64,000 nucleotides of DNA. Source: Candidatus Zixiibacteriota bacterium. GTDB lineage: Bacteria > Zixibacteria > MSB-5A5 > GN15 > JAAZOE01. The notes beneath the pieces were generated by a model that was given only the letters and a program-made list of their open reading frames with translations, made no database searches and had not been told where the DNA came from. The stretch's first letter is position 1. Each line of letters starts with the position of its first letter. This document shows, piece after piece, positions 17,701 to 19,308 of the stretch. The translations under genes and the position numbers were made by a program. The DNA lies in NCBI GenBank assembly GCA_043819555.1, contig JBDREQ010000025.1, forward strand, positions 92,503-156,502. The letters run 5' to 3'.

Positions 17701-17759
17701 TCGCTTCTAAATTCCCTTGACTTAACGGCGATAAAAAGTATTATATATGCCTTGTAAAT

Positions 17760-17833
17760 GCTGGGGTAGCTCAGACGGTCAGAGCGCCTGACTGTGGATC
17801 AGGAGGCCGGCGGTTCGATCCCGCCCCCCAGTA
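17760..17833 (+). tRNA. tRNA-His (anticodon GTG) with no encoded G-1, a G1-U72 wobble and A73; CCA not encoded
   Basis: Hand-folded cloverleaf: acceptor GCTGGGG/CCCCAGT, D arm GCTC-AGACGGTCA-GAGC, anticodon arm CCTGA-CTGTGGA-TCAGG (GTG at 17794..17796), variable AGGCC, T arm GGCGG-TTCGATC-CCGCC, discriminator A at 17833. The base at -1 (17759) is T. Confidence 0.9.
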
Positions 17834-17856
17834 TTTTTTGTTTTTATCAGAACATA

Positions 17857-19308
17857 ATGAGTAAAAAAAAGAACAAGCCAAAAAAGATTAAACCGGAAGT
17901 CCTAAAGGGTTTCAAAGACTATCCGCCGTCCGAAGAGATTGCGCGGCAAAAGCTTGTAGCGGTTTTTCGGGAAGTGTTTGAGTCGTTTGGATTCTCTCCG
18001 CTTCAAACCCCGGCTCTTGAGCGAGTCGAAGTTCTGAAAGGTTCGGATTACGGACAGGATAACCTGGAGACGATTTTCAGCTTTGTTGGCCCGGAAAAAA
18101 CCGATATGGCTCTGCGTTTTGAACTGACCGCTTCGCTGGCGCGGTATGTCGCCGGATATCCGGAATTACCGCTTCCGTTTCGCAGATATCAGATCGGCCC
18201 GGTCTGGCGCGTCGATAAACCCGGTCCGGGAAGGTTTCGAGAATTCACTCAGTTCGATATCGATTCGGTAGGAACGTCGAGCATGCTGGCCGATGCCGAG
18301 ATTATGGCGGCGATCTGCAAATCATTCGAGAAACTTGGCCTGACAAATTACAAAGTCAAATACTCCAATCGAAAAATACTGAATGGCCTCGCGCAGTATG
18401 CCAAAATCCAGCCGGAAACGGCCCCTGATGTTTTTCGAGTGATCGACAAGTTAGATAAGCAGGGAATGGACGCGGTAAAGCTCGAACTTGGTCCAGGGCG
18501 AACAGATATTTCGGGCGATAAGATTCCGGGATTGAATTTACCCGGTGAACAGATTGAGATTCTTGAAAAGTTTCTATTACTGCAATCTTCAGAAGAAAAT
18601 AGTATTGAAGCCGCCGGAAAATTATTGTCTGGGATTGCCGATGCCGAAGAGGGCATTGATGAGCTAAAACTTATTGCATCCTATCTCAAAAATCTCGGTG
18701 TTCCAGAAGAGAAGGCTCAAATTGATTTGACCATTGTGCGGGGACTCGGATATTATACCGGGCCGGTGTTTGAGACGGTGCTTGAAGATATTCCCGAGAT
18801 CGGATCGGTGTTTGCCGGAGGGCGTTATGACGGTTTAGTCGAGCGGTTTCTTGGAAAGAAAATTCCGGCAACGGGGGCGTCGGCGGGAATTGACCGACTA
18901 CTGGCGGCGCTGATGCTAAAAGGAGTTATCAAAACCGAGCCGACGATATCTCAGGTTCTCGTTACCGCGATGGACAAGGATCGGATGCCTGATTATCTCA
19001 ATATACTAAATGAAATTAGAGACGCCGGTATCAAGGCCGAGATTTTTCTTGGCGAAACGCAGAATTTCACCAAGCAGATTAAATACGCTGACCGGGTTGG
19101 CATTCCAATCGCGGTCATTCTTGGTTCGGATGAATTCGAAAATAACCAGGTGACGGTTAAAAATCTCGTTGCGGGGAGAGTCCAGGCTGAAGAAGTCGCC
19201 GATCGCGAGGAGTGGCTCAAGGCTGAAGATATTCAGGCGACAATTCCCCGAGGGGAATTGATAGATTATCTGAAGAAGCTTCTTAAAGAAATTAATCAGA
19301 CAAATTGA
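17857..19308 (+). CDS. hisS: Histidyl-tRNA synthetase, long (483 aa) divergent type
   Basis: Class II HisRS pattern (..[12 protein letters not shown].., motif-2 region ..[32 protein letters not shown].., ..AGGRYDGLV..) plus a C-terminal anticodon-binding domain. The start is set at ATG 17857 because the longer ORF (17794) overlaps the tRNA. Confidence 0.9.
   Translation: [483 protein letters not shown]

Follow-up and report, generated by a model that had tools for sequence, protein, structure and literature searches.

A histidine tRNA gene without encoded G-1 directly upstream of an insertion-type histidyl-tRNA synthetase gene in Zixibacteria

The tRNA-His and hisS genes of the locus

We analysed a stretch of 64,000 nucleotides (nt) of contig JBDREQ010000025.1 from a Candidatus Zixiibacteriota bacterium, which is called the window below. 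The window carries a gene for histidine tRNA (tRNA-His) and, directly downstream of it on the same strand, the hisS gene for histidyl-tRNA synthetase (HisRS). The extra G-1 of tRNA-His is among the most conserved identity marks in biology, and this tRNA-His gene does not encode it.

The tRNA-His(GTG) gene is 74 nt long and lies on the forward strand at 17760-17833, where Rfam RF00005 matched it end to end (70.1 bits) and ARAGORN read the anticodon as GTG. The Rfam covariance alignment placed G1 opposite U72 and gave A73 (17833) as the discriminator. Position -1 (17759, forward strand) is T and not G, by both the sequence and the Rfam register. The ARAGORN call (17759-17834) is off by one base in its register because T-1 can pair with A73. 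All seven pairs of the acceptor stem (5'-GCTGGGG / CCCCAGT-3') are formed, with G·U at 1-72 (G17760 with T17832) and C2-G71. In addition, an arm-by-arm parse gave a D loop of 9 nt, AGACGGTCA, also written as AGACGGUCA. The anticodon loop is CUGUGGA, with G at 37, and CCA is not encoded in the gene.

An earlier note on this DNA, the sequence-only reading, had given the same acceptor stem, G1-U72 pair, A73 at 17833 and T at 17759, and had called this the sole tRNA-His of the window. The Rfam fold agrees with it, and ARAGORN and Rfam found no second tRNA-His in the window, the only other tRNA there being tRNA-Gly(CCC). As for a fold with G-1 and C73, which that reading itself had named as contrary to its claim, the covariance model yielded T-1 and A73 instead; a mis-folded canonical tRNA-His is ruled out by this register.

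The hisS gene (17857-19308, forward strand) begins with an ATG 23 nt after A73 and ends with a stop at 19308. Its product of 483 amino acids (aa) scored 374.6 bits against the hisS equivalog TIGR00442 (cut-off 286.75), and Pfam found the tRNA-synt_His and HGTP_anticodon domains (the latter at residues 366-454), in agreement with the HisRS that the sequence-only reading had placed directly downstream of the tRNA. The paralogue HisZ was ruled out, as TIGR00443 gave 189 bits, below its cut-off of 271.65, and the HGTP_anticodon domain is present. The window HisRS is 100% identical to P0001, a protein of a Candidatus Zixiibacteriota metagenome-assembled genome (MAG) on a 226-kb contig, which bears out the earlier impression that the window is not alphaproteobacterial. 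The 119 other database matches listed were 59-79% identical to it, and the organism-named ones among them were mostly from Zixibacteria. The HisRS of Zixibacteria relatives overall are 59-86% identical to the window enzyme and have intact catalytic motifs. The best PDB matches were the Nostoc (3net, E 2.6e-72) and Elizabethkingia (6nhi, 7.1e-70) enzymes, followed by human cytoplasmic HisRS. Thus, the window HisRS belongs to the long form, which is common in Cyanobacteria and Bacteroidota.

Two regions of the enzyme set it apart from canonical HisRS. The first is the motif-2 loop (residues 117-130; 18205-18246, forward strand), which reads KPGPGR and, aligned with E. coli FRHERPQKGRYRQF, has the changes R116 to K, Q118 to G and K119 to P. 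The motif-2 region quoted in the sequence-only reading is exactly what the translation gives, and the alignment against Caulobacter-type and canonical enzymes that it had proposed showed Gly as in alphaproteobacterial enzymes and not Gln. The KPGPGR loop is identical in the Paracoccus, Cereibacter, Sinorhizobium and Methylobacterium enzymes, where it is preceded by a [WF]-type context. Gly in place of the ancestral Gln, which contacts G-1:C73, has been described as a marker of the G-1-less alphaproteobacterial clade (PMC3937112).

The second region is an insertion in the anticodon-binding domain (residues 438-458; 19168-19230, forward strand). Canonical enzymes have 3 residues at this place in the alignment, so that about 18 aa are extra. 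The window HisRS has this insertion in common with the Paracoccus, Cereibacter, Sinorhizobium and Methylobacterium enzymes, and the alignment showed it to be absent in the Bacteroidales (Parabacteroides), Elizabethkingia 6nhi, Nostoc 3net, Patescibacteria, Pseudoalteromonas, Bacillus and human enzymes. An insertion in this domain has been named the likely basis of anticodon discrimination by the Caulobacter-type enzyme (PMC3064791; PMC3245924). In an AlphaFold model (mean pLDDT 81, about 67 at the insertion), the insertion is predicted to form helices 437-444 and 450-453 between strands 431-436 and 460-464 of the anticodon-binding domain. Among insertion-bearing HisRS, G440 (96%), W453 (91%) and Q460 (97%) are conserved.

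Judged by the alignment, the window HisRS carries both sequence hallmarks of the Caulobacter-type G-1-independent enzyme. The sequence-only reading had called it a long, eukaryote/alphaproteobacterial-like HisRS. The alphaproteobacterial type stands by the KPGPGR loop and the insertion, whereas the long form alone is not diagnostic and was rejected as a sufficient marker, as the long enzymes 3net and 6nhi lack the insertion. In an alignment of 217 HisRS, the insertion was found in 89 sequences (91 after realignment), none of which has the motif-2 Gln; 109 have Gln and no insertion, and 19 have neither. P0221 and P0212 (Planctomycetota MAGs), P0217, P0238, P0255 and P0269 have no motif-2 Gln, some reading exactly EKPGPGR, and no insertion. 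These may be a further group with altered recognition of the acceptor end.

Distribution, linkage and origin of the pair

A scan of species-representative genomes gave 76 loci, for which we use the taxon labels of the deposited MAGs. Every HisRS at least 40% identical to the window enzyme lacks the motif-2 Gln and has the loop KPGPGR, KPDPGR, KPD[RK]GR, KPGAGR or NPGRGR. Meanwhile, nearly all HisRS with a readable loop at 39% identity or below (Patescibacteria, some gammaproteobacterial MAGs) keep [KR]PQ[KR]GR or a near variant, and a loop of this kind is also present in the reference enzymes of Parabacteroides (33%) and Pseudoalteromonas (29%). The insertion-type, Gln-less HisRS was found in Zixibacteria, Ignavibacteriota/Bacteroidota MAGs, Marinimicrobia, Krumholzibacteriota, Hydrogenedentota, Planctomycetota (Phycisphaerae, Planctomycetaceae, Pirellulaceae), Acidobacteriota (Bryobacterales, Thermoanaerobaculia) and alphaproteobacterial MAGs. 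Cluster look-ups added Candidatus Uabimicrobium, Candidatus Lernaella, Saprospiraceae, Pelagibacteraceae, Parvibaculales and Hyphomonadaceae. With 75-86% identity to the window, several loci that carry the label 'Ignavibacteriales' probably belong to Zixibacteria.

ARAGORN found a tRNA-His(GTG) beside hisS in 35 loci, and 33 of these together with the window made up the parsed set of linked tRNA-His (n = 34). A73, C2-G71 and G37 are present in all 34 and G1·U72 in 32, and G stands at -1 in only two. The co-occurrence is strict, in that all 34 adjoin an insertion-type HisRS. The D loop has 9-10 nt in 28 of the 34 and 8 nt in six (five of them from Phycisphaerae), and its extra base is U in most. 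The two tRNAs without G1·U72 are those of L037:2740-2813 (Planctomycetota; G1-C72) and L038:2852-2924 (Thermoanaerobaculia; C1-G72). That both retain A73, C2-G71 and G37 suggests that some members of the family can do without U72.

The sequence-only reading had proposed a survey of related genomes for the linkage of the two genes. A tRNA-His lies within 350 nt upstream of hisS on the same strand in 30 of the 53 non-alphaproteobacterial insertion-type loci, compared with none of the 16 Gln-type loci and none of the five alphaproteobacterial ones. The difference between insertion-type and Gln-type loci is significant (Fisher p = 2e-5), but these loci are not phylogenetically independent. Judged by these genes, the G-1-less type of pair is widespread and not exceptional.

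Some variants of the linkage were also observed. In L015:2692-2766 and L016:2701-2775 (Bacteroidota-labelled MAGs), the tRNA-His is divergent and about 215 nt from hisS, and in L025:4860-4932 (a Phycisphaeraceae MAG) it lies 3' of hisS. In addition, L052:46-1687 (a Zixiibacteriota-labelled MAG) has an 'EK' HisRS subtype that is 41% identical to the window enzyme, with a tRNA-His 26 nt upstream. Either there are two HisRS subtypes in nominal Zixibacteria, or the bin or taxon label of L052 is wrong.

Two scans of viral contigs gave no insertion-type hisS with a tRNA-His. On these two scans a phage-borne cassette was rejected, the alpha-like L085-L087, L117 and L120 having no adjoining tRNA-His and resembling host flanks. 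Many of the IMG/VR contigs L093-L113 end in a Bacteroidales-type hisS beside a tRNA-Met gene; rather than phage-encoded HisRS, they probably represent prophage predictions running on into host DNA at a tRNA-Met integration site. A metagenome scan for processed, CCA-tailed tRNA-His gave only genomic tRNA-Met genes and one tRNA-His that encodes CCA. The metagenome contig L168 carries a G-1-less tRNA-His with encoded CCA. Furthermore, the metagenome tRNA(CAT) genes L165, L167, L169-L171 and L174 (GCCGGGG/CCCCGGU, A73, G1·U72) have nearly the same acceptor end as the G-1-less tRNA-His. This likeness would fit the anticodon, and not the acceptor end, separating histidine from other identities.

The results of phylogenetic analysis bear on the origin of the pair. 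In a focused neighbour-joining tree (L-INS-i alignment, 104 sequences, 470 columns), the insertion-bearing HisRS formed a clade with 78% bootstrap. Inside it, an 'EK-PGPGR' subclade (91%) joined Rhodobacterales, Rhizobiales, SAR11, Parvibaculales and Hyphomonadaceae with Marinimicrobia, Lernaella, Uabimicrobium and Saprospiraceae. The window HisRS fell into a separate Zixibacteria clade with 99-100% support in the neighbour-joining trees. The phylogeny proposed in the sequence-only reading thus puts the window HisRS in the insertion-bearing clade, away from Gln-type HisRS. Consistently, a tblastn search of plasmids and chromids ranked Rhodobacterales and Rhizobiales (40-44% identity) above Bacteroidales (33%); in a blastn search of plasmids and chromids for alphaproteobacterial tRNA-His genes, only unrelated tRNAs matched. 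Since the insertion is a rare structural change, it is independent support for a single origin.

From this nesting, the alphaproteobacterial HisRS therefore appears to have arisen inside a family that spans several bacterial phyla. A previous study regarded the loss of G-1 as a unique synapomorphy that 'likely arose only once', through transfer of a eukaryote-derived HisRS (PMC3937112), and another remarked that transfer from eukaryotes is not supported (PMC5370408). The nesting, as read from our trees, departs from the former and agrees with the latter. The sequence-only reading had offered an independent occurrence or a transferred pair; neither an independent invention nor a recent transfer suits an enzyme that shares 40-44% identity with its alphaproteobacterial homologues and falls into a clade of its own phylum, Zixibacteria.

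Expression, processing and alternative explanations

A putative sigma-70-like promoter, TTGACT and TATTAT with a 16-nt spacer (10/12 consensus matches), lies on the forward strand at 17717-17744. It ends 15 nt 5' of position +1 of the tRNA-His, and the predicted leader is about 8-9 nt. The block CTTGACTT...TAATAT stands at an equal distance from tRNA +1 in 11 of the 12 Zixibacteria loci, L052 being the exception, and the sequence around it varies. Between A73 and the hisS ATG there is a T-rich spacer of 23 nt, T6-G-T5-ATCAGAACATA (17834-17856, forward strand), in which neither a terminator-like hairpin nor a promoter-like site was found. Its T6-G-T5 part, pointed out in the sequence-only reading, occupies 17834-17845. 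In 10 of the 12 Zixibacteria loci the tRNA-hisS spacers are 23-44 nt long and T-rich right after A73; that of L043, for example, has 41 nt, and that of L006, with 161 nt, is an exception. Because the promoter is conserved and the spacer contains neither promoter nor terminator, hisS would most simply be expressed from the tRNA promoter and freed by tRNA processing. The tRNA-His and hisS are thus probably one transcript in Zixibacteria, and the expression of hisS by read-through of the tRNA transcript, as suggested in the sequence-only reading, is plausible.

We consider it quite probable that the locus is a G-1-independent, histidine-decoding housekeeping pair in one transcription unit, working as follows. 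A transcript would start at the conserved promoter about 8-9 nt before the tRNA-His and run through the short U-rich spacer into hisS. RNase P would cut at its normal site, between U-1 and G+1, and an RNase Z-like 3' endonuclease, proposed because CCA is not encoded, would cut after A73, followed by CCA addition. With these two cuts, the mature tRNA-His would have an acceptor stem of 7 bp and nothing added at its 5' end. With Gly in place of the motif-2 Gln and Lys in place of Arg116, the window HisRS would no longer read G-1:C73. It would select the tRNA by the GUG anticodon, probably via the insertion in the anticodon-binding domain, together with U72/A73. Selection by the anticodon with U72/A73 has been measured for the Caulobacter crescentus HisRS (PMC3064791).

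The bases around the predicted cuts fit this proposal. All 12 Zixibacteria tRNA-His have a purine at -2 and T at -1, as would suit an RNase P cut 3' of U. RNase P prefers U immediately 5' of its cut, and in precursors that lack CCA the cut of RNase Z falls 3' of the discriminator, usually in front of U. Because of this habit of RNase Z, the T run after A73 fits cutting by it.

Several points weigh against the proposal. The extra D-loop base (20a) of the window tRNA-His is C and not U, and the T run after A73 could end a share of the transcripts. The own genome was read through the 64,000-nt window only, and the relatives as the hisS locus with flanks of up to 10 kb. All the HisRS trees are neighbour-joining trees only; the broad one, with 217 sequences, brought all insertion-bearing HisRS together, but its deep node has 12% bootstrap. 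Finally, the bias toward T at -1 and its possible pairing with A73 seem to leave room for a retained U-1.

This last point leads to the best surviving alternative. T stands at -1 in all 12 Zixibacteria loci (L004-L009, L024, L043, L046, L052, L054 and the window) and in 25 of the 34 linked tRNA-His, compared with one of nine non-His tRNA genes in the same sequences (p = 0.001, a small sample). RNase P might cut one position early in Zixibacteria, and perhaps in most of the family, owing to the pairing of U-1 with A73 and the absence of CCA from the precursor. The tRNA would then keep an 8-bp stem, and U-1:A73 in place of G-1:C73 would be a third, undescribed histidine identity read by the insertion-type HisRS. 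The -1 counts, the ARAGORN register, which uses T-1:A73, and the lack of an encoded CCA all suit this explanation. However, nine linked A73 loci have C, G or A at -1, so that the pair is not conserved across the family, and the baseline of non-His tRNA genes is small (n = 9). In addition, -2 is never U in Zixibacteria, although in canonical tRNA-His U-2, which lies 5' of the shifted RNase P cut, is reported to be important (PMC3245924). The homologous alphaproteobacterial tRNA-His, moreover, is reported to lack an additional nucleotide (Wang 2007, as cited in PMC3064791). We therefore regard a retained U-1 as unlikely, including the new identity that it would imply. Given the constant purine at -2 in Zixibacteria and the nine A73 relatives with another base at -1, we favour the view that T-1 helps RNase P to choose its site on a substrate whose G1·U72 end is weak.

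Two other explanations seem to us still less probable, and about equally so. One keeps the dependence on G-1: as in eukaryotes, RNase P would cut at +1 and a Thg1-like 3'-5' nucleotidyltransferase would then add G-1 opposite A73. Eukaryotic tRNA-His genes likewise have A73 and no encoded G-1 (PMC3245924), Thg1-like proteins occur in some bacteria (PMC3061083), and our view of the genome covers 64 kb. No Thg1/TLP domain was found among ten window ORFs (open reading frames) flanking tRNA-His/hisS and around tRNA-Gly, and no whole-genome search was made. Against added G-1 stands the HisRS itself, which has the derived loop and the insertion of an enzyme that works without G-1 and is slightly inhibited by it. 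Moreover, U72, G37 and the enlarged D loop are the G-1-less set and not that of eukaryotic tRNA-His, and PMC3061083 states that G-1 is genome-encoded in most Bacteria and Archaea, where post-transcriptional addition is not necessarily required.

The other explanation is that the pair is accessory or redundant, with a canonical G-1:C73 tRNA-His and a Gln-type HisRS elsewhere as the main system. Our view of this genome is the window, and some bacteria have a second, plasmid-borne HisRS, such as the plasmid copy of Bacillus cereus. However, the pair is kept in every recovered Zixibacteria relative, with HisRS at 59-86% identity, intact catalytic motifs and a conserved promoter, and the window HisRS scores above the hisS equivalog cut-off. 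The 119 other proteins listed are all at least 59% identical, the organism-named ones being mostly from Zixibacteria, and the precedent alphaproteobacterial clade uses a single such pair (PMC3064791).

Although the closest characterised relatives of the window HisRS are alphaproteobacterial, recent horizontal transfer from an alphaproteobacterium, or contamination of the bin by one, is very improbable, given 40-44% identity to alphaproteobacterial HisRS against 59-86% to those of Zixibacteria, a place in the Zixibacteria clade (99-100%) and thus in another subclade, tRNA-hisS linkage in none of five alphaproteobacterial loci, and relatives on contigs of 0.2-4.5 Mb.

Beyond the G-1-independent pair, some other features of the window were recorded. 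Just 3' of the hisS stop there are two stable hairpins (19311-19426, forward strand; minimum free energy -46.8 kcal/mol, z = -3.9 against shuffles) without a T run; the transcription unit may end here. The core palindrome of this region, AATTTCGC-TTC-GCGAAAT, occurs once in the window. The tRNA-Gly(CCC) gene (32181-32263; Rfam 64.8 bits) has A at -1 and no encoded CCA. It is followed by a T8 run and, some 10 nt further on, by the start of a radical-SAM/DUF512 gene, with der/engA next; the listed ORF 32203-33558 begins within the tRNA-Gly, and its start is probably over-extended. Since tRNA-Gly shows a like order of tRNA, T run and protein gene, this layout is a habit of this genome. As a second tRNA-synthetase pair, tRNA-Gly was ruled out by its downstream gene. 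The feature that distinguishes tRNA-His is a downstream gene for the cognate synthetase, and this holds across phyla. In addition, 22413-25025 encodes an 870-aa protein that combines a peptidase domain of the M6 (immune inhibitor A) type with a type I dockerin at its C-terminus. The ORF 16110-16808, described as its neighbour, had no Pfam match.

Comparison with known systems

Reviews and papers from 2010 to 2023 confine the bacterial G-1-less system to some Alphaproteobacteria (PMC3064791, PMC3245924, PMC3937112, PMC5389517, PMC5370408, PMC9976931). In a full-text literature search, which left subscription journals largely uncovered, we found no G-1-less system in Zixibacteria, Planctomycetes, Acidobacteria or otherwise outside Alphaproteobacteria, and no report of tRNA-His-hisS linkage. 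The breadth and the gene linkage are thus probably, though not certainly, without prior report. By homology, we take the locus as a non-alphaproteobacterial member of the known G-1-less system, with a mechanism predicted from that of C. crescentus. What is new here, as far as the genes indicate, is the wide spread, the coherent clade that the two HisRS hallmarks define and that includes the alphaproteobacterial enzymes, and the finding that the tRNA and synthetase genes commonly form one putative operon. If this is true, the alphaproteobacterial system becomes testable as a transfer from other bacteria, possibly of a ready-made tRNA-synthetase cassette. For these phyla, furthermore, isotype models and the rules for annotating tRNA-His would need revision, and many natural orthogonal HisRS/tRNA-His variants would be at hand for genetic-code engineering.

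The nearest known system is that of the RRCH alphaproteobacteria (Rhizobiales, Rhodobacterales, Caulobacterales, Hyphomonadaceae and most SAR11), which was characterised in Caulobacter crescentus (Yuan 2011, PMC3064791). Wang 2007 and Ardell & Andersson 2006 are the founding papers. Yuan 2011 (PMC3064791) defines the G-1-less tRNA-His group by A73, G1-U72, a C-G pair next to it and a D loop enlarged to 9 nt by U20a, and G37 is within the transplanted element set of that study. The C-G pair beside 1-72 is printed 'C3-G71' in that paper and is taken here as 2-71. In C. crescentus the anticodon and U72 are major determinants and A73 a minor one, and an added G-1 lowers kcat/Km five-fold (PMC3064791). 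The sequence-only reading had described this alphaproteobacterial exception (no G-1; A73, U72 and anticodon identity; a divergent HisRS) in terms that match Yuan 2011 (PMC3064791).

The window tRNA-His has every tRNA-side feature given for this group, namely no encoded G-1, A73, G1·U72, C2-G71, G37 and an enlarged D loop, except that its extra D-loop base is C where RRCH tRNAs have U. Its HisRS likewise has KPGPGR and the anticodon-domain insertion and falls into the same insertion-bearing clade. However, the host is a member of Zixibacteria and not of RRCH, and relatives occur in six or more further non-proteobacterial phyla. The enzyme is 40-44% identical to the RRCH ones and belongs to another subclade ('DK' before the loop in the window, 'EK' in RRCH). 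Another difference is that the window tRNA lies directly upstream of hisS under a conserved promoter, a linkage seen in none of the five alphaproteobacterial loci.

Compared with the canonical system of E. coli and T. thermophilus (G-1:C73, a shifted RNase P cut, Gln118/Arg116/Arg123), the window pair shares the enzyme family and fold, the GUG anticodon and the catalytic motifs. It differs in having no G-1, A73 for C73 and U72 for C72 on the tRNA side, and Gly for Gln118, Lys for Arg116 and about 18 extra aa in the anticodon-binding domain on the HisRS side. The long HisRS of Nostoc (3net) and Elizabethkingia (6nhi) have the overall architecture of the window enzyme. However, they have neither the insertion nor KPGPGR, the Elizabethkingia loop being RPQKGR, and for this reason the long form alone is no sign of G-1 independence.

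Outside Bacteria, a G-1-less tRNA-His is charged by a non-canonical HisRS in Trypanosoma brucei and Acanthamoeba castellanii (PMC9976931, PMC4338351). These systems are eukaryotic, and the loss of G-1 in protists was presumably independent of the bacterial one.

As for gene order, tRNAs are co-transcribed with a protein gene in thrU-tyrU-glyT-thrT-tufB of E. coli, where tRNA processing frees the mRNA. Unlike that operon, the locus described here combines a single upstream tRNA with its cognate synthetase, and this order is conserved across phyla.

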